From contig CAVRAY010000002.1 of assembly GCA_963719225.1 (NCBI GenBank), positions 512,001-576,000 on the forward strand: 64,000 bases of DNA, in the 5' to 3' direction. The notes beneath the pieces were generated by a model. It saw only the letters and a list, made by a program, of their open reading frames with translations. It did not search any database and was not told the origin of the DNA. Every line of letters starts with the position of its first letter. Position 1 is the stretch's first letter. The position numbers and the translations under genes were made by a program. Source of the stretch: Thermoanaerobaculia bacterium (GTDB lineage: Bacteria > Acidobacteriota > Thermoanaerobaculia > UBA5066). Positions 31,792 through 49,584 of this stretch are shown piece by piece.

Positions 31792-32460
31792 AATCGACCT
31801 GCTCCCCGAGGATGGGCCACTCAGGATGTGAGAGCTCGCCCCCCCGGTGAGCCGCCGCTGCTTCGGCGCGGGGGTCAGCGAAAGAATCATGCCTGTTGTC
31901 GCCGGATCGGGAATGAAAACAGGTAGTCATCGTTGCCTTCACGCCAAAGCCCGATGGCGATGTCTCCCAAGGGCGCCCATCGGGCGATTACTCCAGTATC
32001 AGCGTCCTGTCCCGCAAAGAAGCCCTCGCGAGTCCGTGTTCCGTTGATCAGGAACCCGTCGTGGCTGCGTTTGCCCGTCGAGAGGTTTATCCCATACCAC
32101 TCAGGATCGTCAGGAACATAGAGAACCGTTGTGTCAGCGTCGACCGTCCTGATCTCGATGGTCACATGACTGTCTGAATCGCACGATATGAAGTGAGCCG
32201 TCGTGGTGTAGCCTCGCGATTCGGCATGAAGGCGTTGGTGTCGCTTGCCTCTATTGGGTGCCGGCGAAGTCTTCACTTGGCGCTCCGCGATGCGGCGCGC
32301 TCGCGATGAAGGACGTGTCCTCCTGAGGGCGGGCACCAGTGTTTCATGCAGGGCCCCTCTTATATCTAACGATACCGAGTTCACCGGGGAGCGCAAGTAG
32401 AGTGAACTGCGGGGGTGCACTCCGCAAGGCCGAGGCGGAGGTTGGGGCCAGAAGGCATAG

Positions 32461-33288
32461 GCCGCCGCGCGTCTGAACAAGTCACAGCCGGCCGTGACGA
32501 TGACGGTGAAGGCTCTGGAGCGGGAGATGGGTGTGCCCCTCTTTGCGCGGGAGGGCCGCGGAAAGAGGCTGACGGCGGCGGGAGCGAGGCTGGCCGCGAA
32601 GGCCGCGGGCATCCTGGAGGGCGCGCGGCGATTGAAGGAGGATGTCGCCGGAGAGCCGGAGGTGCCCCGGGGGCCCGTGCGGGTGGGGGCCGGGGAGGCC
32701 GCCATCGTCTACTTCCTGCTTCCGCTTCTTCGAAGGATTCGCGAGGCGTACCCGTCCCTGGCTCTCGAGGTGCGAAACCAGCGCGACATGGAGTCGTTCG
32801 ATCAGTTGCTCGCGGGCGAGCTGGACCTGGCGGTTCGGTCCCGGGAGGCGCTGCCGCACGGTTTGAGGTTCGAGCCGCTGTTCGCGTCGGATCGAATGCT
32901 GATCGTGCCGCGTGGTCACGAGCTGGCGGGGAAGAAGCGCCCGACGCTCAGAGACCTCGCTCGCCATGCGTTCGTGATCCCCCCGGCGGGTTCGACGTCG
33001 CGCCGCCTGATCGAGGCCGCGTTCCTGCGGGCCGGCCTGAGGCTGGAGATCGCGATGGAGGCGGGAGGCTGGGAGATCGTGAAGCGCCTGGTGCGGGCAG
33101 GGGTGGGCGTGGCGGTGGTTCCTCGATTCTGTTGGAGGCTCCTGATCTCAGGAGCGGTGGCGATTCCGGCGGGGCATCTCTTCCCTCCGGATGTCCATGG
33201 GCTGGTGACGCGGGAGGGCACCGGCGCCTCATCCGCAACGGCCGCCGTGACGCGGGTGCTGGAGGAGGCGGGGAGGAGGGTGGGGTAG
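32461..33288 (+). pseudogene. LysR-family regulator fragment, copy 1 (lacks the HTH N-terminus)
   Basis: AAARLNKSQPAVTMTVKALEREMGVPLFAR..LTAAG..GELDLAV..VRAGVGVAVVP; in-frame TAG immediately upstream. Confidence 0.9.
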
Positions 33289-33304
33289 GGGGGCTTTACA
33301 TGAC

Positions 33305-33332
33305 TTGCGAGTATACGCAGAATGCGTATACT
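33305..33332 (+). promoter_or_regulatory. Promoter and operator of the HigBA-like cassette
   Basis: TTGCGA-16-TATACT overlapped by the perfect inverted repeat AGTATACGCA-gaa-TGCGTATACT. Confidence 0.65.
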
Positions 33333-33339
33333 TTCAGGC

Positions 33340-33683
33340 GTGAAAGGCGTGTTCGTCGAGCTGCCCGCCTTCGAACGACATCGGACGAATTACCTCGATG
33401 ACGAGGCGTTCCGGAGCCTCCAGAGCCTTCTCATGAAGGATCCGTCGGCGGGCGACCCGATCCCGGGGACCGGAGGCCTGCGAAAACTTCGCTTCGCCGA
33501 TGTGCGGCGGGGAAAAGGAAGCGAGGCGGGCTCAGGGTGATCTATTACTGGTGGCAGGCCGGGCTGCAGTTCTGGCTCTTCACCATCTACGCCAAGGACG
33601 AGATGTCGGACTTGACCGCGGCCCAGCGCGAAGCGCTGAAGAGAATGATCAAGGCGGAACTGGAAGCAAGGAGAACGTCATGA
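33340..33683 (+). CDS. RelE/HigB-like toxin (frameshifted at an A-run)
   Basis: VFVELPAFER..GDPIPGTGGLRKLRF..RGKG / RGGLRVIYY..LFTIYAKDE. Confidence 0.82.
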
Positions 33684-34027
33684 AGATCGAAGGCGGAGGC
33701 AGGCGGGCGCGTTCGGGCAAGCGCGACCTGTTCGTCGAGCTGAGCGAGGGAGTCGCCGCTCTCACCGAAGCGCGTGAGGGGAAGCGGACGCTGCGATCTC
33801 ACACGGTCGAGTACAAGCCGGCGCCAAAGGTGACACCACAGGAGTTGATTCGCGTTCGCGAGCACCTGAACCTGTCGCGCGCCCTCTTTGCCGTCTATCT
33901 GCGGACCAACGTGCGAACTCTGGAGAACTGGGAGCAGGGCCGCGCCAAGCCGAATGCGCAGGCGGCTCTTCTGATCAACCTGGTCAAGAAGTACCCGGAC
34001 ACGGTCGAGCGGCTCGCAGCGATCTGA
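33680..34027 (+). CDS. HigA-like HTH antitoxin
   Basis: LSRALFA..NVRTLENWEQGRAKP. Confidence 0.88.
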   Translation: MKIEGGGRRARSGKRDLFVELSEGVAALTEAREGKRTLRSHTVEYKPAPKVTPQELIRVREHLNLSRALFAVYLRTNVRTLENWEQGRAKPNAQAALLINLVKKYPDTVERLAAI

Positions 34028-34062
34028 TCAGGAGCCTTAGCCGGTAAGCTTGACCCTGGGCA

Positions 34063-34995
34063 ATGAGCTACGACCTTTTCTTCCGGTTTCGTCCCGGCGC
34101 ACTTCACGCCTCCGCCAGCGAGATCCTGGACTTCTTCAAATCGCGTCCCGGATATGAGTGCTCCGAGACGCAGGCCTGGTACTCGAACGAAACGACGGGC
34201 GTCTATTTCTCGTTCGAGATTGAGGAACGGGGAACTGCGGAAGAGGCGGGCGAGCAGTTCGACGAGGAAGCACCTCCGCCAGATCCTGACGCGGCGCCCG
34301 TTTCCTTCAACATCAACTACTACCGCCCGCACTTCTTCGGGCTGGAGGCCGAGCCGGAGCTGACGCTGTTCGTGAAGCTCTTCGACCTGCTCGTGTCCGA
34401 CCCGCAGGTCAGCGGGATGGGCGATGGGGAGTACACGCCAGAAGGATTCTTGGCGGGCTGGAACGCAGGAAACGTCGTCGGATATCGCGCCGCTGCTGCG
34501 TCAATCGAGGACGAAAAACCTCACCTTCTGCCCACCGCGGTACTGGAGCGGATCTGGCGTTGGAACTACACCCGCCCCAATCGCGCGGAGGCGCTCGGCG
34601 AGGAGACATACGTGCCCCGGATCTTCCACTTCCAGAAAGACGGCCAGCTGCAGTCGGGCATCGTATGGGGCGATGCGATGCCTATCCTGATTCCGCGGGT
34701 CGACCTGATCCTTGCCCCTCGCGAAAAACTAGCCCCTCGCAGGTTCTTCAAGGCGCAAGAGGACAAGGTGCTGTGCACATGGGGCGAGATCGAGCCGCTC
34801 CTCACGACGTTTCCTCAGGTGAACGACTATCTGCCGGCTTGGCGTCTTTCCTATCGGGAGATTCCGCGGGCCATCGAGGCGTTCTTCCGCTCGCATGAGC
34901 CGCTCCTTGATACGTCGGCAGGCATGAAGATCGTCGCGATGGACCTCGTGCTGAACGCGGAGATCTATGAAGAGGCGCGAAAGCCTCGCACCTAG
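34063..34995 (+). CDS. Hypothetical protein (cargo)
   Basis: Clean 310-aa ORF; its stop abuts LysR copy 2. Confidence 0.7.
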   Translation: MSYDLFFRFRPGALHASASEILDFFKSRPGYECSETQAWYSNETTGVYFSFEIEERGTAEEAGEQFDEEAPPPDPDAAPVSFNINYYRPHFFGLEAEPELTLFVKLFDLLVSDPQVSGMGDGEYTPEGFLAGWNAGNVVGYRAAAASIEDEKPHLLPTAVLERIWRWNYTRPNRAEALGEETYVPRIFHFQKDGQLQSGIVWGDAMPILIPRVDLILAPREKLAPRRFFKAQEDKVLCTWGEIEPLLTTFPQVNDYLPAWRLSYREIPRAIEAFFRSHEPLLDTSAGMKIVAMDLVLNAEIYEEARKPRT

Positions 34996-34996
34996 C

Positions 34997-35518
34997 GGCG
35001 TACCCGTCCCTGGCTCTCGAGGTGCGAAACCAGCGCGACATGGAGTCGTTCGATCAGTTGCTCGCGGGCGAGCTGGACCTGGCGGTTCGGTCCCGGGAGG
35101 CGCTGCCGCACGGTTTGAGGTTCGAGCCGCTGTTCGCGTCGGATCGAATGCTGATCGTGCCGCGTGGTCACCTTAGAAACCCCTCGCTCGCCATGCGTTC
35201 GTGATCCCCCCGGCGGGTTCGACGTCGCGCCGCCTGATCGAGGCCGCGTTCCTGCGGGCCGGCCTGAGGCTGGAGATCGCGATGGAGGCGGGAGGCTGGG
35301 AGATCGTGAAGCGCCTGGTGCGGGCGGGGGTGGGCGTGGCGGTGGTTCCTCGATTCTGTCTGGAGGCTGCTGATCTCAGGAAGCTGGTGGCGATTCCGGC
35401 GGGGCATCTCTTCCCTCCGGATGCTTATGGGCTGGTGACGCGGGCGGGCACCGGCGCCTCATCCGCAACGGCCGCCGTGACGCGGTTGCTAGAGGAGGCG
35501 GGGAGGAGGGTGGGGTAG
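34997..35518 (+). repeat. LysR fragment copy 2
   Basis: Near-identical to the 3' part of copy 1; ~27-bp internal deletion; ends GGGTGGGGTAG. Confidence 0.95.
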
Positions 35519-35529
35519 GGGGGGCGGGG

Positions 35530-35841
35530 CTATCTGGCCACGGCCCGGGCGATCTCTCGAGGCCGTTTCCCGGTGGCGAGAAGCGACCGAACGATGAGAT
35601 CGAGGCTGACCTGCGCGTCAGCGGCCTCCATCTTCGCGACTCGGGACTGGCTCGAGCCCAGCTTCGAGGCGAGCGCCGTCTGGGACAGCCCCTTCTTCAA
35701 GCGCGCCTTCTTGAGTTCGCGAGCGAGGCTGAGCTTGATCTCGATGTAGGCCGATTCCTCGGGGGTCAGGCCGAGGAAGGTCTCGGCGGATCCGAATGTC
35801 CAGCCCTTCTTCGTGAGGCGAGCCTTCTTCGTCTTGTCCAT
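35530..35841 (-). CDS. XRE/HTH antitoxin
   Basis: LSQTALASKLGSSQSRVAKME. Confidence 0.88.
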   Translation of the reverse strand: MDKTKKARLTKKGWTFGSAETFLGLTPEESAYIEIKLSLARELKKARLKKGLSQTALASKLGSSQSRVAKMEAADAQVSLDLIVRSLLATGKRPREIARAVAR

Positions 35842-35845
35842 CTGA

Positions 35846-36178
35846 TTACTCCCTGTCCCATGCCGCGAGGCGCTGCGCGCAGGCGGCGATCACGGCTTTC
35901 GGCGTGCGTTGAGTGCCCTTCTTCTCGACTCCCAGTACCACGATCGCGTCATGCCGAACTGCATAGAAGATCCGCCAGTCGACGTTCCCGTCGGGCACTC
36001 GGAGCTCGTGGCAACCCTTCCCGATCCCCGGCATCGGTCGAGAATCCGGCAGCGAAAGCACGTCCCCCTGCTGAAGGCCCCTCAAGAGGTATCCGGCACG
36101 AACCCGCCCCTCCTTCGAAAAGGGCGGAGACTTGATTCCACCGTGCATCCACGCGAGGGGTTTCTCGGGGAGCTTCAT
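35846..36178 (-). CDS. RelE/ParE (Gp49-like) toxin
   Basis: SRPMPGIGKGCHELRV..WRIFY..KKGTQRTP. Confidence 0.88.
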   Translation of the reverse strand: MKLPEKPLAWMHGGIKSPPFSKEGRVRAGYLLRGLQQGDVLSLPDSRPMPGIGKGCHELRVPDGNVDWRIFYAVRHDAIVVLGVEKKGTQRTPKAVIAACAQRLAAWDRE

Positions 36179-36231: not shown

Positions 36232-36566
36232 GTCCCCGGAGGTGCTGCCGCACGGTTTGAGGTTCGAGCCGCTGTTCGCGTCGGATCGAATGCTGATCGT
36301 GCCGCGTGGTCACGAGCTGGCGGGGAAGAAGCGCCCGACCCTCAGAGACCTCGCTCGCCATGGGTTCGTGATCCCCCCGGCGGGTTCGACGTCGCGCCGC
36401 CTGATCGAGGCCGCGTTCCTGCGGGCCGGCCTGAGGCTGGAGATCGCGATGGAGGCGGGAGGCTGGAGATCGTGAAGCGCCTGGTGCGGGCAGGGGTGGG
36501 CGTGGCGGTGGTTCCTCGGCCGCCGTGAGGAGGGTGCTGGAGGAGGCGGGGAGGAGGGTGGGGTAG
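36232..36566 (+). repeat. LysR fragment copy 3
   Basis: Near-identical; unique 3' internal deletion; same stop and G-tract end. Confidence 0.95.
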
Positions 36567-36575
36567 GGGTGGCTG

Positions 36576-36788
36576 TTAGGCGTAGGCGAGGCGGCCGCGG
36601 GCCTCGGGAATGGGTCGCCCGAGCGACTTTGCGGTCTCGATCCACTCGCGAATGACTACCTCGGCGGCCGCGAGAGCCTCGGCGTAGGACGCACCATCGG
36701 CCATGCAGCCCGGCAGCTCGGGAACCTCGGCGACGAACGCCTCGTCCTCTTTGCTCCAGTAGATGATGACTTCGTACTTGGGGCTCAT
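36576..36788 (-). CDS. hicB: HicB antitoxin
   Basis: YWSKEDEAFVAEVPELPGCMADG..EAL..GRPIP. Confidence 0.9.
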   Translation of the reverse strand: MSPKYEVIIYWSKEDEAFVAEVPELPGCMADGASYAEALAAAEVVIREWIETAKSLGRPIPEARGRLAYA

Positions 36789-37039
36789 AGCGCACCTGAA
36801 AGTTTATACCGGACGAGAATCGATCGCACCTGCTTGACCTGATAAGGCTTAGCTTTCGAACCCTTGGGCTGAATGTTGAGGATCTCGACGACCCCGTCCT
36901 TCGTGAAGATGTGATGGCTGCCTCGGGTGCGACTCTCGAACCCGAGTTCCTCGAGGAGAGCGCAGAGATCTGAGAAGCGGATGTTTGCGTCCGAGGCTCC
37001 GGTCAGGATCTGCTCCAGAAGCCGGCTGTGCCGAGTCAC
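36785..37039 (-). CDS. hicA: HicA toxin
   Basis: LGFESRTRGSHHIF..AKPYQVKQ. Confidence 0.9.
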   Translation of the reverse strand: MTRHSRLLEQILTGASDANIRFSDLCALLEELGFESRTRGSHHIFTKDGVVEILNIQPKGSKAKPYQVKQVRSILVRYKLSGAL

Positions 37040-37144
37040 GGGAGAACGCTAGCACGCCGAGCGACTCGCGAGCCGGCGCCGGAGGGGCTGGACTTGCCCC
37101 GATTTCGGGCGATAGGATTTGCCTCGCCAACCGGGGGTACATCG

Positions 37145-39001
37145 ATGACGCGGTCGCTCATATCGGCCTTGGCTTCGCTTCTCCTCGCAGTGGATGTCCG
37201 GGCGGCCGACCCCCGCTGGACGGTCGAATTCAAGGAAGGCGCGCGCACCTTCCTCACGGCGACGGGCCTCGAGGTCGGACAGAAGACAACTCCGGGCGCG
37301 ACGATCGCGGGATACCTCGTCGTCAAGCTGCCAGCCGACGTCGACCCCGCCACCACGAACCGCGGCGTGTTTCTCGGCCGCGTGCGTGTGCCCGAGCGGC
37401 GTGTCACTTGGCTGAAAGGGGACGAGTTTGCGGCCGGTGCGCTGCTGCCCGCGCAGCACCTCATCGCCGTCACTCCCAACGCCGGCTTCGAGCCCGGGTT
37501 GTGGGCGGTGAAGGTCCGCGACACCGTCAAGGACCGCAACGGGCGCCCGGTCAATCCCACGAACGCCACGTGGACGGTCGAGATCGGGGAACCGCGTGTA
37601 CGGCCGGACGAAAGCGGCCCGGCTCGTAACACGCTGAAGCTGAAGTTCACGACCGAGGTCGATCCGGCGACGTACGCGGACGGGATCGTCGTGGAGAAGC
37701 AGGTCGCGGGAGGCTGGGAGGAGGAGCCGCGGGGCAGCGCGACGATCGCGCCGCGGGAGCACGGCGGGTCGGTCAACGAGATCGGTCTCCGGCCCCTCGG
37801 CGGGTGGGAACGTGGGGCGACGTACCGCGTGCGCGTCACGGAGGCAATCCGCGACCTTCGTGGGCTCCCCCTGACGAACGCCGAAGACTTCAGCTTTGTT
37901 GTGCCGAAGTCCGGGCCGTTCGACACGCGTCACGAGCCGCGGCGGCCGGTGGCGCAGGCGAGTGCACAGGCGGCCTCTGCAGGGCCGGCGTTCCCGGGCG
38001 GGCAGGCGCTGGGCTGGCACGGGCACTGGACCGACCCCGTCACCGGGCTCATCTACATGCGCCACCGCTGGTACGACCCGCGGACGGGGACGTTCCTGTC
38101 GCCGGATCCGCTCGAAGACATCGACTCGCCGAACCAGTACCTGTTCGGCGCGGGCAGGCCGCACGAGGTGGTGGATCCGCTGGGGCTGTGTCTAGGTCTG
38201 GACAAGGAAGGGCGCCCCTGCGGTTACTACGCTGACAGGATCGACGACTACCTAGTCGAGACGGCGAAGCTGCGAAGAGACCGAACCGGGGTTCCACTGG
38301 CCCTCGATCGTCTGCTGCTCAGTCCGGTCACGGGGATTCTGCGACTCGGCGAGGCGCAGGGTCGACTCGGCTATCGATACGCCGAGGCTTTGACCAATCC
38401 CAGGGTCGCCCTGCCGCCAGGCGCGACCGTCACGAGCGAGACGAACGAGGTCGGAGCCGACCTGCTTCAGGCTGCCGGCGACGCAGCGCTGCTGGCGCCG
38501 CTGACGAGGGGCCTGGTTGGCATGCGCACCGCTGCCTCGCCTGCCGCTTTAGTCCCCATTGCGGAGTCGATGCGTCCGTCTCTGCCGGTGCTGAACCCGC
38601 ATTTCACCCCCGACCCAAAGGCGGTGTTGCAGAACCTGGCCACCTTCCAGAACGCACGGCTTGCTGCGAATCCGGCGCTCGCAGAAACGGTCCTGACACG
38701 CCCGGAGTACGCTGCCGCCACGAAGAACATCGGCATCGCGCGGATGGAGTGGGGGAACGCGGTTGAACGGCTAATGGCGGGAGAGGTTCGTGAGCAGCCC
38801 TCACTCAGATCTATGTTCGAACACCAGGGCGGACCAAACAGGCCAGATTTCATAGGAAGAGGCGCCTTCGATGGGCTGAAATTCGAGGTGACGACACCCG
38901 GACAAGTACGGGCGCACTTGGCTCGGCCCCGATACGGACTAGGATTGAATGTAGTCACCTACCAGAGGCCCGCGGGCTTTACTCTATTCCCGCCACAATG
39001 A
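37145..39001 (+). CDS. Mini-Rhs polymorphic toxin 1 (signal-like N-terminus, Ig-like domains, Rhs core end, putative nuclease CT)
   Basis: TGLIYMRHRWYDPRTGTFLSPDP..NQYLF..VDPLG; CT contains GNAVE..RPDF..FEVTT. Confidence 0.8.
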   Translation: MTRSLISALASLLLAVDVRAADPRWTVEFKEGARTFLTATGLEVGQKTTPGATIAGYLVVKLPADVDPATTNRGVFLGRVRVPERRVTWLKGDEFAAGALLPAQHLIAVTPNAGFEPGLWAVKVRDTVKDRNGRPVNPTNATWTVEIGEPRVRPDESGPARNTLKLKFTTEVDPATYADGIVVEKQVAGGWEEEPRGSATIAPREHGGSVNEIGLRPLGGWERGATYRVRVTEAIRDLRGLPLTNAEDFSFVVPKSGPFDTRHEPRRPVAQASAQAASAGPAFPGGQALGWHGHWTDPVTGLIYMRHRWYDPRTGTFLSPDPLEDIDSPNQYLFGAGRPHEVVDPLGLCLGLDKEGRPCGYYADRIDDYLVETAKLRRDRTGVPLALDRLLLSPVTGILRLGEAQGRLGYRYAEALTNPRVALPPGATVTSETNEVGADLLQAAGDAALLAPLTRGLVGMRTAASPAALVPIAESMRPSLPVLNPHFTPDPKAVLQNLATFQNARLAANPALAETVLTRPEYAAATKNIGIARMEWGNAVERLMAGEVREQPSLRSMFEHQGGPNRPDFIGRGAFDGLKFEVTTPGQVRAHLARPRYGLGLNVVTYQRPAGFTLFPPQ

Positions 39002-39690
39002 GGGTATTCGAAGGGCGCGAATTTCGTTCCTTTTACGACGATGGGGACTCGCTCTTCGAGGACATCGAGTTCCGGCGATGCTCCTTCATCAGTTCGGCGA
39101 TCTCGATCACGAGAAACCCCGGTCGAAGGTCGACGGCTCGACGTTGTCGTGTCATTTCGTGTGAACAGCGAGGGTGCGCGATCGATACAGCCGTCCTTGA
39201 GGATGTGCTCGTGGACGGATTTCTCACGCATGGCCTCTTGCAGACTTGGGGGGCCGTCTTCAAGCACGTCACGCTTCGGGGCCGGATGGGGCGAATCATG
39301 ACGAGTGACCGCATCGCTACGGGCACCGCTACGGCTGCCGAGCAGAGCGCCTTCGATGAAGCGAACGCTGCCTACTACGCCGCTGTCGATTGGGCCCTGG
39401 ACCTGCGCGAGGCGGAGTTCACAGACGAACCGGACTTCAGGGGCATCCCCGCGAGGCTTGTCATCCGAGACCCTGATTCACAGGTTGTGGTGACGCGAGA
39501 GAGGGCGATGCAGGGGACGTGGAGGCAGGTCGACCTCTCGGGCACCTCCTGGGAGGCGTACATCCAGGGAATGCTGAGGGACGGCTATCCCGACGTCATC
39601 CTCGTCGCACCTAAGCGGAGTCGGAAGTTCCGGGACCTGCTCAATGGGCTCATGAGACTGAAAGACGCCGGCGTTACGGAACCGTATTGA
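38998..39690 (+). CDS. Putative immunity protein
   Basis: ATGA-coupled to the Rhs toxin. Confidence 0.6.
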   Translation: MRVFEGREFRSFYDDGDSLFEDIEFRRCSFISSAISITRNPGRRSTARRCRVISCEQRGCAIDTAVLEDVLVDGFLTHGLLQTWGAVFKHVTLRGRMGRIMTSDRIATGTATAAEQSAFDEANAAYYAAVDWALDLREAEFTDEPDFRGIPARLVIRDPDSQVVVTRERAMQGTWRQVDLSGTSWEAYIQGMLRDGYPDVILVAPKRSRKFRDLLNGLMRLKDAGVTEPY

Positions 39691-40088
39691 TGGCATCGAG
39701 GATCATCGCGCACCGTGTGGAACTGCCGGGAGAAGGAATCCACGAAGTCTCCCTCGAGGCCTCGGACCACGGCCTTGTCATCGACGTCAACGCATCCACG
39801 GCCTACCACTACATCACGAACCGGGACTTCTCCGAGATCTTCGACGCACTGCACCTATACGATCGCGGCACCGCTGATGAGCTTCAGGGCGGAGAGTCAG
39901 CGTTCGTCGTGTGGTCGCCCGAACTCCAACGAGCCGGCGTCTTCTATCGGGGCAGGTTTCAGGCCGCTGTGGACTTTGAACGACACGAGGCGCGCTGCCG
40001 CAGCGGGTTTCCGACGTTGCCAAACACTCCGTGGCTTCGATCGGGCCACGGGTGGGACGATGAGCTCGTAAAGGGGCTGGAACCCTGA
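39687..40088 (+). CDS. Hypothetical protein, possible orphan immunity
   Basis: Overlapping start in the post-toxin gene run. Confidence 0.5.
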   Translation: MMASRIIAHRVELPGEGIHEVSLEASDHGLVIDVNASTAYHYITNRDFSEIFDALHLYDRGTADELQGGESAFVVWSPELQRAGVFYRGRFQAAVDFERHEARCRSGFPTLPNTPWLRSGHGWDDELVKGLEP

Positions 40089-40113
40089 ATTTACAGACCC
40101 CCAGCAGGCCTGC

Positions 40114-40953
40114 GTGGCTCAGTCTAGATCCGCTCTTCACGAAATGAACGGTCTGACGGATCTCGGCGCCTCCATCGCGATGAATGGCACGCCGGCCGTG
40201 CAGCAGGTCAGATTTCCCGGAAGGTTTCGTTGGACCAGGCGGCTGAACGTAAACCGCTTGTTTGACGACGTGGACCTTGGTGATGTGCATGGCCGCCCAC
40301 GGCTCTGGGGCCATGTCTCATTTGAAGGCTGTGCCTTTCGGGGCGTGACGCTGGACGGGGCGCGGCTCGAACGAGCGTCGTTCACGGGATGCCGATTTGA
40401 GCGTGTCAGATTCGGGCATCGCCTGATGGGGCTTATCAAAGGCTGTACGTTTGAGCACTCGACGTTCTCGGAGGTGGCGTTCGGTGGGGCCCAGATCATT
40501 GATTCCGGCTTTGCGTCATGCGAATTTGACCGAGTGGATGCGAGAGACCTCATGTTTCGGCAGACTCATATTCAGGGGCTCACGCTATCTGGCAACGTTT
40601 CGTCCTGCAACTTAGTCGACTGCACTGTGTCGGAGCTCGACGCCGGCAGAGCCTACGTTGAAGACCTCGGAATCGTCGGGGGCAGCCTGAGGGACGTGAC
40701 TTGGCCGCACCACGACTCGAACTTCGCGGTAGCCCCGTCCTCATTGATCGAGGTAATGGCAGAGGTGGAGCCGAAGCTCCGATTGGAGTCCCGGGCCCGC
40801 TACGAGGAAATGGCGCGTCTGTATTCCGCGTCATCGAGTCCGGTCGTGATGATTGCGAAGTCGGGCGTTAGGGAAATGACTGACGTGGAGTCGGACGCGG
40901 TCATAGGGGCTCTTCGGCGTTTCGGAGTCTCAAAGTCACCCGAGCCCAAGTGA
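40114..40953 (+). CDS. Pentapeptide-repeat protein, possible orphan immunity
   Basis: VSFEG-CAFRG-VTLDG-ARLER-ASFTG-CRFER pentapeptide periodicity. Confidence 0.7.
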   Translation: MAQSRSALHEMNGLTDLGASIAMNGTPAVQQVRFPGRFRWTRRLNVNRLFDDVDLGDVHGRPRLWGHVSFEGCAFRGVTLDGARLERASFTGCRFERVRFGHRLMGLIKGCTFEHSTFSEVAFGGAQIIDSGFASCEFDRVDARDLMFRQTHIQGLTLSGNVSSCNLVDCTVSELDAGRAYVEDLGIVGGSLRDVTWPHHDSNFAVAPSSLIEVMAEVEPKLRLESRARYEEMARLYSASSSPVVMIAKSGVREMTDVESDAVIGALRRFGVSKSPEPK

Positions 40954-41059: not shown

Positions 41060-41852
41060 CGCGTCTGAACAAGTCACAGCCGGCCGTGACGATGACGGTG
41101 AAGGCTCTGGAGCGGGAGATGGGTGTGCCCCTCTTTGCGCGGGGGCCGCGGAAAGAGGCTGACGGCGGCGGGAGCGAGGCTGGCCGCGAGGGCCGCGGGC
41201 ATCCTGGAGGGCGCGCGGCGATTGAAGGAGGATGTCGCCGGAGAGCCGGAGGTGCCCCGGGGGCCCGTGCGGGTGGGGGCCGGGGAGGGGGACTCGGATT
41301 CGCGAGGCGTACCCGTCCCTGGCTCTCGAGGTGCGAAACCAGCGCGACATGGAGTCGTTCGATCAGTTGCTCGCGGGCGAGCTGGACCTGGCGGTTCGGT
41401 CCCGGGAGGCGCTGCCGCACGGTTTGAGGTTCGAGCCGCTGTTCGCGTCGGATCGAATGCTGATCGTGCCGCGTGGTCACGAGCTGGCGGGGAAGAAGCG
41501 CCCGACGCTCAGAGACCTCGCTCGCCATGCGTTCGTGATCCCCCCGGCGGGTTCGACGTCGCGCCGCCTGATCGAGGCCGCGTTCCTGCGGGCCGGCCTG
41601 AGGCTGGAGATCGCGATGGAAGCGGGAGGCTGGGAGATCGTGCAGCGCCTGGTGCGGGCAGGGGTGGGCGTGGCGGTGGTTCCTCGATTCTGTCTGGAGG
41701 CTGCTGATCTCAGGAAACTGGTGGCGATTCCGGCGGGGCATCTCTTGCCTCCGGATGTCCATGGGCTGGTGACGCGGGAGGGCACCGGCGCCTCATCCGC
41801 AACGGCCGCGGTGAGGAGGGTGCTGGAGGAGGCGGGGAGGAGGGTGGGGTAG
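41060..41852 (+). repeat. LysR fragment copy 4
   Basis: Starts 6 nt after the copy 1 start; deletion of the AIVYFLLPLL segment; same 3' end. Confidence 0.95.
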
Positions 41853-41860
41853 GGGGGAAG

Positions 41861-41920
41861 CTAAGCGACTTGATAGATGGCGGGCTTGAAGGACGGGGGC
41901 GGTATGGTCTTACCCGCCTC
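41861..41920 (-). pseudogene. hicB 3'-end remnant
   Basis: Encodes EAGKTIPPPSFKPAIYQVA*, matching the hicB C-terminus at 50596-50655. Confidence 0.8.
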
Positions 41921-42257
41921 CACCCTTGGACAAGAGTTCCTTGACGGCTGCCTCGAGGCCCGGCAACTCTTCGTTAACCGCCTGCCAGACGATGTCGAGA
42001 TCGGCGACGAAGTACTGGTGCGCGAGGACGTCGCGCATTCGGGCAAACCCACGCCAGTCGACAGCGGGATGGCGCTCCGTGAGTGCCTCCGGGAGCTTCT
42101 TGATGGCTTCCCCGATGACCCCGAGGTTGTGGAGGACGGCGTCGCGCGTGCGCACGTCGGAATCGAGCGTCTGCCGCGACGCGCCCGCGAGGTAGGTCCG
42201 CACGCGGGTTGCGGCCTCGAGGATGTCCTCCAGGTAGAGCCTAAAGTCCCGGGACAT
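41910..42257 (-). CDS. HEPN (DUF86) RNase toxin
   Basis: YLEDILEA..IGEAIK..MRDVLAHQY (RX4HXY). Confidence 0.9.
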   Translation of the reverse strand: MSRDFRLYLEDILEAATRVRTYLAGASRQTLDSDVRTRDAVLHNLGVIGEAIKKLPEALTERHPAVDWRGFARMRDVLAHQYFVADLDIVWQAVNEELPGLEAAVKELLSKGGGG

Positions 42258-42570
42258 CCTGGGCTTCTGCGAGGACCCTCTCGCGAACGAGGGGCCTGAT
42301 CGTCTCGCGGATCACGAGGTCCACCTTGTGTCCGAGCAGTTTCTCGAGGAAGTCTGCGAGGCCCATGTAGTTCCGGAACGTCTTCCTGTCGAAGTCGACG
42401 AGGAAGTCGAGATCGCTCTCGGGCCGCGCCTCACCTCGAACGGTCGAACCGAACAATGAAAGCCGCCGGACGCCAAAGGCCTTTAGCGCACCGACCTCAC
42501 CCGCAAGGGCAGTAAGGACGTCCTCGGCGCGGAGCGCTTGGTGGTGGGGCCGATGGGCTATGGTACGCAT
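42241..42570 (-). CDS. MNT nucleotidyltransferase antitoxin
   Basis: LFGSTVRGEARPESDLDFLV. Confidence 0.9.
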   Translation of the reverse strand: MRTIAHRPHHQALRAEDVLTALAGEVGALKAFGVRRLSLFGSTVRGEARPESDLDFLVDFDRKTFRNYMGLADFLEKLLGHKVDLVIRETIRPLVRERVLAEAQDVPGL

Positions 42571-42658
42571 GGCTGGCCGATTATCGCTCTCCGGCCGAGG
42601 GTCTGGACTTGCCCTGATTTCAAGCGATAGGATTTGCCCCGCCACCGGGGGTACATCG

Positions 42659-44216
42659 ATGAAGCGGTCGCTCATATCGGCCTTGGCTTCGCTTCTCCTC
42701 ACGGTAGACGTCCGGGCGGCCGAGCCTCGCTGGACGGTCGAATTCAAGGAAGGCGCGCACACATTCCTGACGGCGACGGGCCTCGAGGTCGGGCAGAAGA
42801 CAAGTCCCGGGGCGATCGCGGGTTACCTCGTCATCAGGCTTCCCGCCGACGTCGACCCCGCCACGACAAATCGCGGGATCTTTCTCGGTCGCGTGCGTGT
42901 GCCCGAGCGCCGGGTCACGTGGCTGAAGGAGGACGCAGTAAAGGTGCGCGACACGGTCAAGGACCGCAGCGGGCGCCCGATCAACCCCACGAACGCTACG
43001 TGGACGGTCGAGATCGGGGAGCCTCGCGCGCGTCCGAACGACTCCGGTCCGGCGCGCAACACCCTCAAATTGAAGTTCACGACCGAGGTCGACCCGGCGA
43101 CGTACGCGGACGGGATCGTCGTGGAGAAACAGGTCGCGAGCGGGTGGGAAGAGGAGCCGCGGGGCAGCGCGACGATCGCACCGAGCGCGCACGGCGGCTC
43201 GGTTAACGATATCGGACTCCGGCCGCTGGGCGGATGGGAGCGCGGCTCGACGTACCGCGTGCGCGTCACGGAGGCGATCCGCGACGTGCGCGGACAGCCG
43301 CTGACGAACGCCGAGGACTTCAGCTTCACCGTGCCGAAGTCCGGGCCGTTCGACACGCGCCACGAGCCGAAGCGGCCCGTGGCGCAGGCGAGCGCACAGG
43401 CGGCATCAGCAGGGCCGGCGTTCCCGGGCGGGCAGGCGCTCGGGTGGCACGGGCACTGGACGGACCCCGTCACCGGCCTGATCTACATGCGCCACCGCTG
43501 GTACGACCCGCGGACGGGGACGTTCCTCTCGCCGGACCCGCTGGAGGACATCGACTGGCCGAACCAGTACCTGTTCGGAGCGGGTAGGCCGCACGAAGTG
43601 GTGGATCCGCTGGGGCTGGCGGTGACGGTGAAGTGGGAGAAAGGCGTTCTCTGCAGGGGCTGTCTGACGTTTGGCGCCGACCTCGGGTTGACGATGGGAG
43701 GAACCGGAGTTCCAGTTCGCAAAGGACGTGGCCGGTGTCTATCTGCCCCGTCTCTTCGCCAGGCCGCGGCCTCGGGTTGCCACAGCCGGTGTCAGAGGTT
43801 CGGCCCCGATTGGTCCGGTGGGTCCGGTTCAGGCACTCGAGCCGGGGCAATGGGTGAGAGCCAGCGAGTCCATGAGTGCACGCGCTGCGGCCTACCAAAC
43901 GCAGATCTCTGGCCGGGCCGCCGGTGAGGTCTACCTGGTGGACGGAGTGAATTTCGATGCATTTCGCGGCGGAACGCTCCTCGACGCGAAGGGCCCGGGC
44001 TATGCGACCTTTACGAAAGACGGACGCTTTCGGGAGTTCTTTCAGGGTGCCGAGGATCTGCTTAGCCAGGCGGCTCGACAGGTGCGGGCCGCTGGCAAGA
44101 CATCCATCGAATGGCATGTCGCCGAAAGGGAGGCCGCCGACGCCATCACGACGTTGTTGCGTGAGGCGGGCTATTCTTCTCGGATCAATGTTGTCTTCAC
44201 ACCTCCAGTGCCGTGA
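42659..44216 (+). CDS. Mini-Rhs polymorphic toxin 2 with Tox-REase-5-like CT (frameshift after DPLG)
   Basis: N-terminal part homologous to toxin 1; CT has YQTQISG..DGVNFD..LLDAKG..IEWHVAE. Confidence 0.8.
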
Positions 44217-44941
44217 TGGCGGATAGCTTCGTTGTCGGCGCCTACTGGGGGAGCCGGTCGGAGATGCCGGAGGGCTGCGCACAAAGGCTGAATCAACTGC
44301 TCGCCGGGCTGAAGTCCCTGGACCCGGTGTTTGCTGGATGGTTCGCAAAAGGGCCTTCTGCGGGAATAGACCGAACAAAGAATCTCTCGCCCGCGGACAT
44401 CAATGATCTCGCTATGCGTGGAGTGAATCGGCGCGACCTCGGCGCCTCGCCCATCCCTGCGCTTGGCGTGCGAATCGGAGTTTGGAACGGCGGCCGCGAG
44501 GGAACGACCGCGGTGGGCATCAGCACGCGCTGTGGCTCCTTCGATGAGTCCGGCGGCGTGCCGGCCTTGAACTCACTTCTCATCAGCCTGCCGAATCAAG
44601 GCCCGGACGCCGATCGCATTCTCAACATCGAGGCACTTGAAGAAATGCTCGAAGTGGTCGTTCGCGCCTACGACCCGGACTGGGCGGTCGTGGCATCACG
44701 AGAACACATGAAGCTGTGGCCTTCTGGTCCTGAGGGCGGGCCCCACGCGGGCTGGATCACATATCTGTCCAGACGAAATAGAGAAGCGACGTTGGCGGCC
44801 AACGGTTTGGCCCTGAAACGCCTTGAGTTCGCTGCTTTCGGGACAGCCTGGGTCACGACGGAGGAGAGGTTTTCTCTTAGCAACCCCACTCACATCGCAC
44901 AGGGGCGCGTGTTGGAACAAGCCATCAGCCGAAGACCGTAG
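44213..44941 (+). CDS. Imm52-like immunity protein
   Basis: GAYWGSRSE..CAQRL..W, YDPDWA, GWITYL; coupled to the REase-5 CT. Confidence 0.75.
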   Translation: MMADSFVVGAYWGSRSEMPEGCAQRLNQLLAGLKSLDPVFAGWFAKGPSAGIDRTKNLSPADINDLAMRGVNRRDLGASPIPALGVRIGVWNGGREGTTAVGISTRCGSFDESGGVPALNSLLISLPNQGPDADRILNIEALEEMLEVVVRAYDPDWAVVASREHMKLWPSGPEGGPHAGWITYLSRRNREATLAANGLALKRLEFAAFGTAWVTTEERFSLSNPTHIAQGRVLEQAISRRP

Positions 44942-44987: not shown

Positions 44988-45646
44988 GCTCTGGAGCGGG
45001 AGATGGGTGTGTCCCTCTTCGCGCGGGAGGGTCGCGGAAAGAGGCTGACGGCGGCGGGAGCGAGGCTGGCCGCGAAGGCCGCGGGCATCCCGGAGGGCGC
45101 GCGGCGATTGAAGGAGGATGTCGCCGGAGAGCCGGAGGTGCCCCGGGGGCCGGTGCGGGTGGGGGCCGGCGAGGCCGCCATCGTCTACTTCCTGCTTCCG
45201 CTTCTTCGACGGATTCGCGAGGCGTACCCGTCCCTGGCTCTCGAGGTGCGAAACCAGCGCGACATGGAGTCGTTCGATCAGTTGCTCGCGGGCGAGCTGG
45301 ACCTGGCGGTTCGGTCCCGGGAGGCGCTGCCGCACGGTTTGAGGTTCGAGCCGCTGTTCGCGTCGGATCGAATGCTGATCGTGCCGCGTGGTCACGAGCT
45401 GGCGGGGAAGAAGCGCCCGACGCTCAGAGACCTCGCTCGCCATGCGTTCGTGATCCCCCCGGCGGGTTCGACGTCGCGCCGCCTGATCGAGGCCGCGTTC
45501 CTGCGGGCCGGCCTGAGGCTGGAGATCGCGATGGAGGCGGGAGGCTGGATGTCCATGGGCTGGTGACGCGGGAGGGCACCGCCGCCTCATCCGCAACGGC
45601 CGCCGTGAGGAGGGTGCTGGAGGAGGCGGGGAGGAGGGTGGGGTAG
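44988..45646 (+). repeat. LysR fragment copy 5
   Basis: Near-identical; ~120-bp 3' deletion (GGAGGCTGG|ATGTCC); same end. Confidence 0.95.
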
Positions 45647-45681
45647 GGGGGGACCCACCTACGCCACGATAGAATGCTCGA

Positions 45682-45927
45682 GTGAGCCGAGACCCGCTGC
45701 TCGCCAGAATCACGCTGGACCCCAAGGTCATGGTGGGGCAACCCGTGGTCCGTGGCACGCGCCTGACCGTCTCCTTCATCCTGGGCCGTCTCGCCCACGG
45801 ATCCGCGGTGGAGGACCTGCTGAGCGAGTATCGCGGGCTGACCCAGGAAGACGTTCAGGCCTGCCTGCTCTTCGCTGCGGAAGCGGTGGGCGACAACACC
45901 TTCGCCCCCCTCGCCAACGCGAAGTAA
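45682..45927 (+). CDS. DUF433 antitoxin
   Basis: RITLDPKVMVGQPVVRGTRL..LTQEDVQACL. Confidence 0.88.
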   Translation: MSRDPLLARITLDPKVMVGQPVVRGTRLTVSFILGRLAHGSAVEDLLSEYRGLTQEDVQACLLFAAEAVGDNTFAPLANAK

Positions 45928-46111
45928 GTGCGTTTTCTCGTCGACGAATCGACGGGGCCTGACGTGGCGCGGTGGCTTCGAGCGCCCGGCAAACAAGAAG
46001 GCGGTTCTGGAGAGGCTCCTTCAGGGGCACGGTAAGGACATTCCCGGCAGTTTCGTCGTCGTGTCGGAGGACACCGTGAGGATCACGCGGTTCTCGGGTG
46101 GCGGGAGCTGA
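45928..46111 (+). pseudogene. DUF5615 PIN toxin with large internal deletion
   Basis: MRFLVDESTGPDVARWLRA joined to C-terminal ..GSFVVVSEDTVRITR; stop codon overlaps LysR copy 6. Confidence 0.7.
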
Positions 46112-46429
46112 GGCGTACCCGTCCCTGGCTCTCGAGGTGCGAAACCAGCGCGACATGGAGTCGTTCGATCAGCTGCTCGCGGGCGAGCTGGACCTCGCGG
46201 TTCGGTCCCGGGAGGCGCTGCCGCACGGTTTGAGGTTCGAGCCGCTGTTCGCGTCGGATCGAATGCTGATCGTGCCGCGTGGTCACCTCAGAAACCCCTC
46301 GCTCGCCATGCGTTCGTGATCCCCCCGGCGGCTGTCCATGGGCTGGTGACGCAGGAGGGCACCGGCGCCTCATCCGCAACGGCCGCCGTGAGAAGGGTGC
46401 TGGAGGAGGCGGGGAGGAGGGTGGGGTAG
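46110..46429 (+). repeat. LysR fragment copy 6
   Basis: Two internal deletions; same end. Confidence 0.95.
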
Positions 46430-46448
46430 GGGGTAACATTCTGAAGGT

Positions 46449-46772
46449 ATGAGCCCCGCGCAAGTGCTTTCAAGCGGACGGATTACGGTGCCTCGGGAGG
46501 CCATTGCGGGCTTCTGCCGGAAGCACCACATCCGGCGGCTGGCTCTGTTCGGGTCGGTGCTTCGAGACGACTTTCGAGGTGACAGCGACGTGGACGTCCT
46601 GGTCGAGTTCGAACCCACCCACGTTCCCGGGTTCTTCGGGCTTTTCGGAATGGAGCAGGAGCTTGGGGAGATCGTCGGCCGCAAGGTGGACCTGAACACG
46701 CCGGGCTCGCTGAGCAAGTACTTCCGGGCCCGGGTATTGGCCGAGGCCGTGCCGCTGCATGACGCGGCATGA
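46449..46772 (+). CDS. MNT antitoxin
   Basis: [20 protein letters not shown]. Confidence 0.9.
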
Positions 46773-47097
46773 CGAGGACGCGCGCCTCCGGCACATGCTG
46801 GACGCTTCGCGCGAGGCCGTCGGCTTCGCGAAAGGGAGATCGAGAGCAGACCTGCACGCCGACCGCGGCTTGCAGCTGATTCTCACGAGGCTTCTCGAAA
46901 TTGTCGGCGAGGCGGCGAACAAGGTGCCGCAGGCGACACGCGACCTCTACCCTGAGATTCCCTGGTCGGCCGCGATCGCGATCCGAAACCGCCTGATCCA
47001 CGGCTACGAGGACGTCGACCTCGACATCGTCTGGCAGACTGTCAACGAGGATCTGCCGAAGTTGATCCGGGCACTGGAGATCGCTGTCGGCGGGTAA
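46759..47097 (+). CDS. HEPN (DUF86) toxin
   Basis: [20 protein letters not shown]. Confidence 0.9.
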
Positions 47098-47117
47098 AGG
47101 GACGACGCAACGACGTT

Positions 47118-47711
47118 CTACCTTTTCCCCTTCGGCGCCTGCGGCCGGAACAGCTTGAGGATCTCGTTGACCAGGTTCAGATCGAAACGTTCCGGGTTGT
47201 ACCGCGGGCCGGCCCAGGTTCGCACGCGGTCGTGCTCCTCGTGCGCCGGGTCGCGCCAGGCCTCGAGAAACCCCACGTAGCCGCCGGTGCCTCCGCAGTC
47301 CTCGGGCGGTGCGGCACGGGCGCCTCCGAGACAGACCGGATAACGGATGGCGGGGTCGGGCGAGAAGCGCTTCTCGACGGCGATGTCGTGGATCCAGTCG
47401 TCCCCGAAGTCGTACGTGTACGAGAAGCGCGTGACGTCGCGTGTCACGAGGTCGCCGAGCCGCGTCATGCGCGGGTGACGGGGACGGACGTCCTCCGGGA
47501 ATTCCGGGTCGGGTTCTGTCACTCGCGACGTCCCGACCTCGAACGCGTAGAGGTGGCTGTGCTCCCACCCGAAAGACCACTGGATGATCTCGTGAAGGAG
47601 ATGGAACGTGCGCGTGTTCGTGACGTGAATGACGCGATAGATCGGCCGCTCGACGTCGCGGATCCGAATCCGGAGCTGAAGGACCTCTTCAGGGAAAGCG
47701 GCGGGTTTCAT
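47118..47711 (-). CDS. pRiA4b ORF-3 family protein
   Basis: LHEIIQWSFGWEHSHL, YTYDFGDDWIH, APPEDCGG. Confidence 0.88.
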   Translation of the reverse strand: MKPAAFPEEVLQLRIRIRDVERPIYRVIHVTNTRTFHLLHEIIQWSFGWEHSHLYAFEVGTSRVTEPDPEFPEDVRPRHPRMTRLGDLVTRDVTRFSYTYDFGDDWIHDIAVEKRFSPDPAIRYPVCLGGARAAPPEDCGGTGGYVGFLEAWRDPAHEEHDRVRTWAGPRYNPERFDLNLVNEILKLFRPQAPKGKR

Positions 47712-47730
47712 CGAGCACATTGTGCGCGGG

Positions 47731-48369
47731 GCCGCCGCGCGTCTGAACAAATCACAGCCGGCCGTGACGATGACGGTGAAGGCTCTCGAGCGGGGAAAGA
47801 GGCTGACGGCGGCGGGAGCGAGGCTGGCCGCGAAGGCCGCGGGCATCCTGGAGGGCGCGCGGCGATTGAAGGAGGACGTCGCCGGAGAGCCGGAGGTGCC
47901 CCGGGGGCCGGTGCGGGTGGGAGGGGATTCGGATTCGCGAGGCGTACCCGTCTCTGGCTCTCGAGGTGCGAAACCAGCGCGACATGGAGTCGCTCGATCA
48001 GTTGCTCGCGGGCGAGCTGGACCTGGCGGTTCGGTCCCGGGAGGCGCTGCCGCACGGCTTGAGGTTCGAGCCGCTGTTCGCGTCGGATCGAATGCTGATC
48101 GTGCCGCGTGGTCACGAGCTGGCGGGGAAGAAGCGTCCGACGCTCAGAGACCTCTCTCGCCATGCGTTCGTGATCCCCCCGGCGGGTTCGACGTCGCGCC
48201 GCCTGATCGAGGCCGCGTTCCTGCGGGCCGGCCTGAGGCTGGAGATCGCGATGGAGGCGGGAGGCTGGCTGTCCATGGGCTGGTGACGCGGGAGGGCACC
48301 GGCGGCGCCTCATCCGCAACGGCCGCCGTGAGGCGGTTGCTGGAGGAGGCGGGGAGGAGGGTGGTGTAG
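47731..48369 (+). repeat. LysR fragment copy 7
   Basis: Same 5' boundary as copy 1 (GCCGCCGCGCGTCTGAAC); three internal deletions. Confidence 0.95.
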
Positions 48370-48388
48370 GGGGTAACATTCTGCTGGT

Positions 48389-48712
48389 ATGAGCCCCGCG
48401 CAAGTGCTTTCAAGCGGACGGATTACGGCGCCTCGAGAGGCCGTTGCGGGCTTCTGCCGGAAGCACCACATCCAGCGGCTGGCTCTGTTCGGGTCGGTAC
48501 TTCGAGACGACTTTCGCCCCGAGAGCGACGTGGATGTCCTGGCCGAGTTCGAGCCCGGGGGCGTGCCGGACTTTTTCGAGCTGGTCGGAATGAAAGAAGA
48601 GCTTTCTTCGATCTTCGGCCGCCGGGTGGACCTCAAGACCCCGAACTCTCTGAGTCCGTATTTCCGCGACCGGGTTCTCGCCGAAGCTTTCCGCCTCCAT
48701 GACGCGGCATGA
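48389..48712 (+). CDS. MNT antitoxin
   Basis: [19 protein letters not shown]; N-terminal half nearly identical to 46449. Confidence 0.9.
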   Translation: MSPAQVLSSGRITAPREAVAGFCRKHHIQRLALFGSVLRDDFRPESDVDVLAEFEPGGVPDFFELVGMKEELSSIFGRRVDLKTPNSLSPYFRDRVLAEAFRLHDAA

Positions 48713-49034
48713 CGAGCTGATTCGCCTTCAGCACATGCTGGACGCGGCCCGTGAGGCGGTCGAGCTCGTCCGCGGTCGGACCTCGCAGCAAATCGAGGAA
48801 GACCGCCTTCGGGTGCTCGCACTCGAGAGGCTGTTCGAGATCATCGGAGAAGCGGCTGCACAGACCTCTGACGGCGTCCGGGCGCGATACCCGGAGATTC
48901 CGTGGAGCCGGATCGTCGGGATGCGCAACGAGATCATCCACGGCTATTCGACGATCGATCTCGAGATAGTCCTCAAGACGGTGGAGAACCGGCTCCCAGC
49001 GCTGATCAGGCAACTCGAAGCGGCTCTGAAGTAG
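48699..49034 (+). CDS. HEPN (DUF86) toxin
   Basis: EIIGEAA..MRNEIIHGY. Confidence 0.9.
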   Translation: MTRHDELIRLQHMLDAAREAVELVRGRTSQQIEEDRLRVLALERLFEIIGEAAAQTSDGVRARYPEIPWSRIVGMRNEIIHGYSTIDLEIVLKTVENRLPALIRQLEAALK

Positions 49035-49052
49035 TCGGCTGCTCCTGACGCA

Positions 49053-49461
49053 GGATTCGCGAGGCGTACCCATCCCTGGCTCTCGAGGTGCGAAACCAGC
49101 GCGACATGGAGTCGTTCGATCAGTTGCTCGCGGGCGAGCTGGACCTGGCGGTTCGGTCCCGGGAGGCGCTGCCGCACGGCTTGAGGTTCGAGCCGCTGTT
49201 CGCGTCGGATCGAATGCTGATCGTGCCGCGTGGTCACCCCAGAGACCTCTCTCGCCATGCGTTCGTGATTCCCCCGGCGGGTTCGACGTCGCGCCGCCTG
49301 ATCGAGGCCGCGTTCCTGCGGGCCGGCCTGAGGCTGGAGATCGCGATGGAGGCGGGAGGCTGGATGTCCATGAGCTGGTGACGCGGGAAGGCACCGGCGC
49401 CTCATCCGCAACGGCCGCCGTGAGGCGGTTGCTGGAGGAGGCGGGGAGGAGGGCGGGGTAG
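49053..49461 (+). repeat. LysR fragment copy 8
   Basis: Both common deletions; same end. Confidence 0.95.
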
Positions 49462-49584
49462 GGGGCTATCTGGCCACCACCCGAGGAGAGCCCGGCGAAG
49501 GACGAGCCGTTCGACGTGACGTGCGTCCCCGGCTTCTACGACGGCGAGGGCGACCTCTGCGGCGGGGCCTTTTCTTGGCCCGGT

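Follow-up and report, generated by a model that had tools for sequence, protein, structure and literature searches.

Repeated gene copies that recombine beside a G-rich motif are known from Neisseria, in which a 16-bp parallel quadruplex (G4) is located upstream of pilE. Mutation of this element blocks nicking and variation, and a cis small RNA (sRNA) is needed (PMC4412290). The promoter of the pilE sRNA is placed approximately 300 bp upstream in a further report (PMC13463697). Meningococcal tpsA/tpsC cassettes are described as recombining by homology, environmental DNA included (PMC3848433). A combination of one-sided homology and an illegitimate joint at the other end has been described for transformation and conjugation (PMC3240628). 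The locus studied here resembles the pilE G4/gar sRNA system in that a G-run motif lies beside recombining repeated gene copies with signs of gene conversion. A first-pass annotation had proposed that a G-quadruplex-like tract at the ends of LysR gene pieces might be the real recombination signal. The strict form of this signal was contradicted, and the quadruplex-signal idea overall is unproven; the main find was the array rather than the quadruplex.

The window was a 64,000-nt stretch of contig CAVRAY010000002.1 (positions 512,001 to 576,000) from a Thermoanaerobaculia bacterium, the genome bin of which is called the source bin (G000). Ten partial LysR copies were located at 32460-51461, with identities to copy 1 of 86-100%, together with one 33-nt remnant. 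The cassettes between the copies contained one or two genes and comprised Gp49/HTH, HicAB, four MNT-HepT pairs, DUF433, pRiA4b ORF3 and two Rhs-like ORFs. The features were as follows.

32460..33293, plus strand: LysR copy 1, without approximately the first 22 codons of the intact gene of 296-297 aa
32669..32698, plus strand: internal (second) G-rich tract of LysR
33270..33293, plus strand: G-rich tract of copy 1, formed by the last LysR codons (GRRVG and stop) and the G-run after the stop; cargo junction
33322..34995, plus strand: cargo 1, a RelE-like/HigA-like pair and a 310-aa ORF without a Pfam match
34997..35529, plus strand: LysR copy 2, 5'-truncated, with a 27-nt internal deletion; G-tract at 35500-35529
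35530..36178, minus strand: cargo 2, Gp49 (RelE-type) toxin and HTH antitoxin
36232..36570, plus strand: LysR copy 3; G-tract at 36548-36569
36576..40953, no single strand: cargo 3, HicAB (minus strand), a Big_5/Rhs-like ORF, then small ORFs (DUF2251, pentapeptide)
41060..41857, plus strand: LysR copy 4; G-tract at 41834-41857
41861..44941, no single strand: cargo 4, a HicB-end remnant, MNT-HepT (minus strand), a second Rhs-like ORF with a Tox-REase-5 tip, and Imm52
44988..45652, plus strand: LysR copy 5; G-tract at 45628-45652
45682..46109, plus strand: cargo 5, DUF433 and a shortened partner gene
46110..46433, plus strand: LysR copy 6; G-tract at 46411-46433
46449..47711, no single strand: cargo 6, MNT-HepT (plus strand) and a pRiA4b ORF3-like gene (minus strand)
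47730..48373, plus strand: LysR copy 7; third G-run broken
48389..49034, plus strand: cargo 7, an MNT-HepT pair
49049..49465, plus strand: LysR copy 8; G-tract at 49443-49465
49466..50243, minus strand: cargo 8, remnants of two other genes, then an MNT-HepT pair
50244..50595, plus strand: LysR copy 9; G-tract at 50572-50595, with TGG where the others have TAG
50596..51058, minus strand: cargo 9, HicB and its upstream partner
51085..51461, plus strand: LysR copy 10, stopping short of the tract
51799..51831, plus strand: internal LysR remnant of 33 nt

The pattern G3+N1-7 x4 was matched in copies 1-6, 8 and 9, as the annotation had stated; the third run is broken in copy 7, and copy 10 is without the tract. 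The end sequence attributed to the copies in general was exact, as a 19-mer, in copies 1-6, but a single change falls in a loop of copy 8, and TGG replaces TAG in copy 9. Cargo had been placed within approximately 5-35 nt of the copies. This spacing was found in six of the nine copies, as measured to the start or stop of the first intact cargo ORF, whereas the gaps were 51, 57 and 123 nt in copies 1, 4 and 8; these longer gaps contain a predicted promoter or remnants of earlier cargo. The suggestion that the LysR 3' end is preferentially kept was borne out, with 52-58 of the 70 complete pieces covering the last 60 nt versus 4-13 of 70 over the first 270 nt. Intact LysR proteins (296-297 aa) share the C-terminus EEAGRRVG, and the tract is coding up to TAG. 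The internal G-tract adjoins a shared deletion joint and, in relatives, also adjoins cargo joints. Three promoter-like matches were predicted in the array, at 33295-33337, downstream of tract 1. The same scan gave no pilE-like sRNA promoter site upstream of any tract; none of the tracts showed a site resembling an intrinsic terminator, and Rfam gave no match at gathering score within 31000-53000.

The toxin frame of cargo 1 is broken, and its antitoxin gave a weak MqsA-type Pfam match. Cargo 9 is 94% identical to the cassette at G000:C1:10200-10694. The Big_5/Rhs-like genes (window 37028-44941; L178, L209, L211) have a constant front, varied toxin tips and immunity genes, and they are island cassettes found across the genus. 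A defence island is located 5' of the array at window 19299-28521 and includes a C-5 methylase (split), Vsr, HATPase, Z1, DUF4420 and AIPR (split); genes resembling this island also precede LysR in G038. Furthermore, a second copy of the 3' portion of a WYL-domain gene lies behind a cargo gene (window 13709-13774 and 14740-14805), and the codons, judged by eye, turn from C-ending to G-ending at the start of the repeat.

Three further LysR copies were found in the source bin at G000:C1:9393-13522. This locus is a second version of the window locus, with flanks approximately 74-85% identical and LysR pieces 96-99% identical. The bin probably mixes two populations, as indicated by two tmRNAs with different tags and a contamination of 6.2%; hence, the window and the G000:C1 locus represent a comparison between populations. 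Two versions of the same loci, at approximately 80% identity, were also observed at C1:1-45000 and C2:544000-603000 of the bin, and C2 has inverted duplicates and is possibly chimeric. At G000:C1:54920-56040, a poly-G/GT stretch of approximately 1 kb has been joined to an ORF resembling Lon protease; this misassembly raises G4 counts artificially. A candidate third anchor at G000:C1:55069 was rejected as a poly-G assembly artefact.

Among 30 relatives, LysR matches with E below 1e-7 were obtained in G008, G012, G014, G015 and G016 of the same genus, and four others were weak. Across Thermoanaerobaculia, 5'-truncated LysR copies punctuate toxin-antitoxin cassette arrays as 117 pieces at 51 loci, drawn from the relatives and 59 metagenome loci with three loci left out (two G012 duplicates and one distant match). 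The pieces within a locus face the same way in all 51 loci. In independent public contigs, the same internal LysR deletions recur and alignment with the reference breaks off at 33280 and 33291; the array is therefore not an artefact of this assembly. The viral contigs searched contained no relative of the array. A search for an array-free LysR ortholog with its native downstream gene returned none, and the close homologues were mostly fragments. Counting against a pilE-type signal, G038 carries one near-intact, single LysR copy in which the tract is present, and intact proteins end in the same residues. Downstream of this single copy is a cassette end that is also present in L072. A pilin-like gene to the right of the array was discarded as a genus-wide landmark, since it occurred in only 2 of 29 genomes.

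The positions at which cargo is joined were evaluated on the distinct right ends away from contig edges. As had been predicted, the breakpoints cluster at the 3' edge of the tract, and 61 of these 77 ends lie within reference positions 810-834, the final 25 positions of the 834-nt reference. Left ends, of which 73 were distinct, are scattered along the gene. To avoid selection on the tract itself, 3' ends were also gathered with a 30-nt anchor upstream of it, which gave 72 matches, 68 of them long enough and 62 distinct. Identity collapsed at reference 833-835 for 56 ends (six were left out for early breaks or an indel), and the 62 ends led into 25 cargo-start clusters. A G-run of at least four, with the G of TAG counted, followed the stop in 48 of the 56 ends. 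By eye, the linkers before one cassette vary by a few bases and often retain 5-15 nt of the start of an earlier cassette. The G-rich end of LysR is a true hot spot where cargo is joined. Among 2118 crudely called ORFs of the bin, LysR ends ranked second and third in G-richness, behind only the poly-G artefact; no true gene end of the bin is thus richer in G than that of LysR, and this richness is not a chance property within the bin. Internal LysR breakpoints were not significantly enriched at G-rich sites (24 sites; p = 0.22 for exits and 0.21 for entries).

The proposal that the tract is the recombination signal was partly sustained. Cargo is joined at the tract edge and the second anchor described below also tends to be G-rich, but the strict G3x4 motif is predicted in only 36 of the 62 ends (10 of 12 from the source bin, 26 of 50 from other sources). 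The second G3 run is lost in 18 of 56 ends through a G-to-A substitution that replaces Arg with Lys. This allele is common or fixed in several arrays, and L032 and L066, which have the A allele, still hold several copies with different cargo. Variable cells amounted to 5.0% in the tract versus 2.8% upstream, although the cells lack independence and the anchor portion had itself been used to select the ends; there were 20 distinct alleles in the 19 sites of the tract versus 43 in the preceding 50 sites. On these alignments, the tract appears no better conserved than the preceding 50 nt, and there is no sign of extra constraint on the tetrad Gs. G4Hunter scores were at least 2 in 55 of the 62 ends. 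ViennaRNA predicted a quadruplex in 60 of the 62 ends and a two-layer form in 55, with energies that were implausibly low and non-discriminating. Weaker quadruplexes, two-tier or bulged, are possible at LysR ends on the G4Hunter scores. The competing idea that the tract merely reflects LysR codons and a G-rich 3' flank accounted for a part of it: synonymous recoding of the last 12 LysR codons gave the motif in 10.5% of trials with genome codon use or 28% with the gene's own codon use. G-ending codons are preferred throughout the LysR gene, and the motif was found across the stop in 2 of 1564 long ORFs (the two uninspected).

Cassettes of the LysR arrays recur in genus members without the LysR repeat. 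The same HicAB cassette was found behind gene ends without a G-run, namely the G-poor ends in G006 and L114, which counts against a pilE-type three-tier quadruplex as the signal. A DUF433 cassette away from LysR opens with a 6-nt purine word that is present in the tract, and L114 is joined through that word. In L177:15560-15680 (G006), the last 40 codons of another gene are extremely G-rich and stand directly before a RelE/HigA cassette in a LysR-free island. A second anchor, unrelated to LysR, was provided by a chaperone gene with a TY-Chap1 domain, 3' pieces of which are repeated two to four times with cargo at the stop in G004 (L181), G038 (L182), G031 (L211) and G001 (L209/L210). The TY-Chap1 arrays draw on the same toxin-antitoxin cassette pool as the LysR arrays. 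TY-Chap1 ends were G-richer in the four multi-copy loci than in eleven single-copy loci (one-sided p = 0.015 by locus, with kin not independent and short contigs possibly hiding copies). A run of at least two G followed the stop in 6 of the 10 ends of multiplied copies, in 1 of the 11 ends of single copies and in none of the 4 ends with a native neighbour. The comparison of native with other neighbours gave p = 0.08. The strict G4 pattern occurred in 2 of the 21 TY-Chap1 ends, both in G031; the 21 were obtained with a stricter match, and a looser one added three multiplied copies and a G012 end. A junction of the stop, five G and the HicB end occurs both at a LysR end, in L111, and at a TY-Chap1 end, in G001; therefore, it was probably transferred from one anchor to the other through a few bases of homology. 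At L211:4420-4465 (G031), a short LysR piece ends at the internal G-tract and is followed by cargo, and the rest of that array uses TY-Chap1.

The reading preferred here, with a probability slightly above even (about 0.52), is that cassettes are exchanged without an integrase by homologous recombination via the LysR arms and that the G-run provides microhomology for the joint. The unit would consist of cargo and a LysR 3' piece, and it could insert or swap by a single crossover or by gene conversion; insertion via LysR homology would leave the 3' piece duplicated. Exchange tracts would stop where homology ceases, at the G-run, and imprecise resolution or slippage at this point may give rise to the variable linkers. 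New cargo may first be joined through short G-rich microhomology, for which the stop codon and the G-run are the likely joint. A quadruplex would be dispensable in this scheme, and G-richness would probably favour the joint. All four combinations of two internal LysR deletions occur among the window copies; provided that each deletion had a single origin, recombination has thus taken place within LysR. At the site 10 nt ahead of the stop, the allele was uniform within a locus regardless of cargo, with 59 of 64 pairs in agreement versus 37.3 expected, a value reached in 0 of 5000 shuffles (one duplicate locus was left out). Homogenisation of alleles extends up to the tract. The repeat architecture, the clustered right ends, the higher identity of LysR pieces than of flanks between the two locus versions, the recurrence of one cassette behind different anchor genes, and the lack of attC or a recombinase near the arrays also favour this reading. 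A ComEC gene and rho are present in the bin. Toxin-antitoxin addiction would hold cassettes in place. The microhomology was traced for only two cargo types. Many island cassettes abut one another without an anchor piece, and so the anchors are not the sole route. The contigs analysed showed neither a circle nor an empty site nor an exchange event, and the comparison with public contigs gave no back-joint, a result of no weight on its own. Also counted against the homology reading were the rank of the anchor as the G-richest real gene end of the bin and the greater G-richness of the second anchor where it is multiplied, both of which fit a structural role equally well.

Such a structural role would be played by a G-strand quadruplex, two- or three-tier and perhaps opened by transcription, that stalls the fork or stops 3' trimming and triggers recombination at the junction. 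The junctions abutting the 3' edge of the tract, the G4Hunter scores, a quadruplex placed by ViennaRNA in a 38-nt piece of copy 1 (with an unreliable three-layer count), the fit of both G031 TY-Chap1 ends to the strict motif and the cargo joints at the internal G-tract all favour this trigger; moreover, the guanines lie on the sense strand of LysR, which, judged from GC skew, is probably the leading strand in both G000 loci. It was nevertheless judged unlikely, since the strict motif is confined to 36 of 62 ends, the run-breaking allele is fixed in the multi-copy L032 and L066, the tetrad Gs are without excess conservation, internal breakpoints are unenriched at G-rich sites, and HicAB follows G-poor ends. 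The pilE G4 is single and non-coding and lies approximately 300 bp upstream with an sRNA promoter (PMC13463697), and no such arrangement was found here. Because its conservation and placement did not agree with those of the pilE element, the LysR tract lies outside that class and is not a pilE-type G4. A broader form of the idea, somewhat more doubtful again, is that any gene with a 3' end G-rich enough to fold a quadruplex becomes an anchor, multiplies as 3' fragments and captures toxin-antitoxin or defence cassettes at the quadruplex edge; the result would be an integrase-free analogue of the integron, with LysR and TY-Chap1 convergent and cassettes traded between species. At the other extreme, the stop codon alone might set the joint, with selection for an unbroken head gene and a deletion bias bringing cargo near, copies inheriting the edge, and G-richness arising incidentally from codon or strand bias. 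The coding nature of the tract up to TAG in intact proteins, the G-ending codons along the whole gene with the 10-28% of recoding trials that yield the motif, and four kinds of HicAB junction that share a stop 5-8 nt upstream and not a G-run are as this account would have it. It was considered quite improbable because the head copy is itself no longer intact at the two G000 loci and in G012, the G-run after the stop is kept in 48 of 56 ends, and at TY-Chap1 such a run follows multiplied ends (6/10) far more than single ends (1/11) or those with a native neighbour (0/4).

Rho prefers C-rich RNA, and the antisense, C-rich unstructured stretch could be a Rho loading site or a roadblock that insulates convergent toxin-antitoxin operons, with selection keeping the 3' pieces. 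The presence of rho, the many cargo genes that end head-on, 5-11 nt from the stop, and the absence of an intrinsic terminator-like site at every tract are consistent with this role, but plus-strand cargo is joined at the same point and the variable linkers are unexplained, which makes it very improbable. The least probable account is that cleavage at the G-run is carried out in trans by a site-specific enzyme of the integron integrase, Xer or rolling-circle transposase type. One-ended rolling-circle transposition produces fixed 3' ends and variable 5' ends, and the LysR pieces resemble this pattern; in addition, IntI is present in the bin and an attC-like half-site lies just upstream of copy 1. 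Against such an enzyme, the junctions differ by several bases and in G-run length, and no attC was found in the 20.7-kb window array or in the 16-kb C1 array by a simple scan (no covariance model) that recovered four plus-strand matches in the bin's own attC array as a control. The sole IntI of the bin, at G000:C1:1115046-1115984, is over 1 Mb from the C1 array and has its own attC array. Six PF00589 tyrosine recombinase matches were found in G000, none of them within the arrays. Y1 or Y2 HUH transposases (PF01797, PF04986) were absent from G000, which is 97% complete, and Y2 occurred in 1 of 29 genus genomes. The half-site spans window 32359-32410 and matches C1:2207812-2207844, and in a public contig it extends into a full attC-like site. 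At G000:C1:2196700-2210200, approximately 1.1 Mb from the sole IntI, a distinct array of attC cassettes was observed; its 60-nt sites are nearly identical, and several have a 1.5-kb IS inserted at one common position. KOPS is the FtsK-orienting motif GGGNAGGG. A KOPS or Chi reading of the junction 8-mer was rejected for want of strand skew, as 60% of 678 GGGNAGGG sites and 50% of 24 sites of the junction variant were on the leading strand. The 7-mer GGGGGAG was 72% leading-strand over the whole contig G000:C1 (n = 654) and is a candidate polar motif of the lineage.

The array is a platform for cassette exchange built from a broken regulator gene in a little-studied lineage, with a toxin-antitoxin pool common to related species. 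It suggests that an integron-like stockpile can arise without an integrase. Strict G4, broken G4 and no G-run form a natural allele series at one junction, and thus G4-started recombination in bacteria outside Neisseria is directly testable. Searches of an open-access library returned no description of cassette arrays built on LysR or chaperone fragments in Acidobacteria.

In comparison with the pilE G4, 8 of the 10 window copies fit the same three-tier pattern of four G3 runs with short loops, on prediction only. Unlike the pilE element, the LysR motif is coding, present in repeated copies, situated at the junction, without a detected promoter of its own and broken in 26 of 62 ends. Moreover, whole cargo genes vary here, whereas segments of the expressed antigen vary at pilE. 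Unconventional circularizable structures similarly have long same-strand repeats, which can be genes, flanking cargo and a unit without a recombinase (PMC7843796); a unit of the LysR arrays, too, would consist of cargo plus one repeat. The LysR arrays, known from contig sequence only, differ from them in their many tandem units, common 3' end and ragged 5' ends, and they carry toxin-antitoxin cargo with interchangeable anchor genes, whereas the cargo in that account is resistance genes. The order of gene, cargo and a directly oriented 3' fragment of the gene, repeated, is shared with the tandem islands of Islander (PMC4383910). In contrast to those islands, the LysR target is a protein gene, the fragments are approximately 30-830 nt with shared internal deletions, and the units are 1-4 kb without an integrase. 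Integrase-built islands have one fixed crossover point, whereas the LysR arrays have 73 different left ends. The meningococcal tpsA/tpsC arrays likewise alternate 5'-truncated gene copies with small toxin/immunity genes, but the 3' tip of tpsC is variable (PMC3848433), whereas that of LysR is constant and its cargo is unrelated to the repeat. Integrons and CALINs are similar in that cassettes of one or two genes, many of them toxin-antitoxin pairs, form ordered arrays that are shuffled; they differ in that the LysR arrays are without attC or attI and an adjacent IntI, hold cassettes in both orientations with their own promoters, and use gene remnants as spacers. One-ended transposition of the IS91/IS200 HUH type differs too, given the lack of a Y1 or Y2 HUH transposase in G000. 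The integrase-free toxin-antitoxin cassette array with swappable G-rich anchor genes is a new form of the known repeat-bounded cargo systems.
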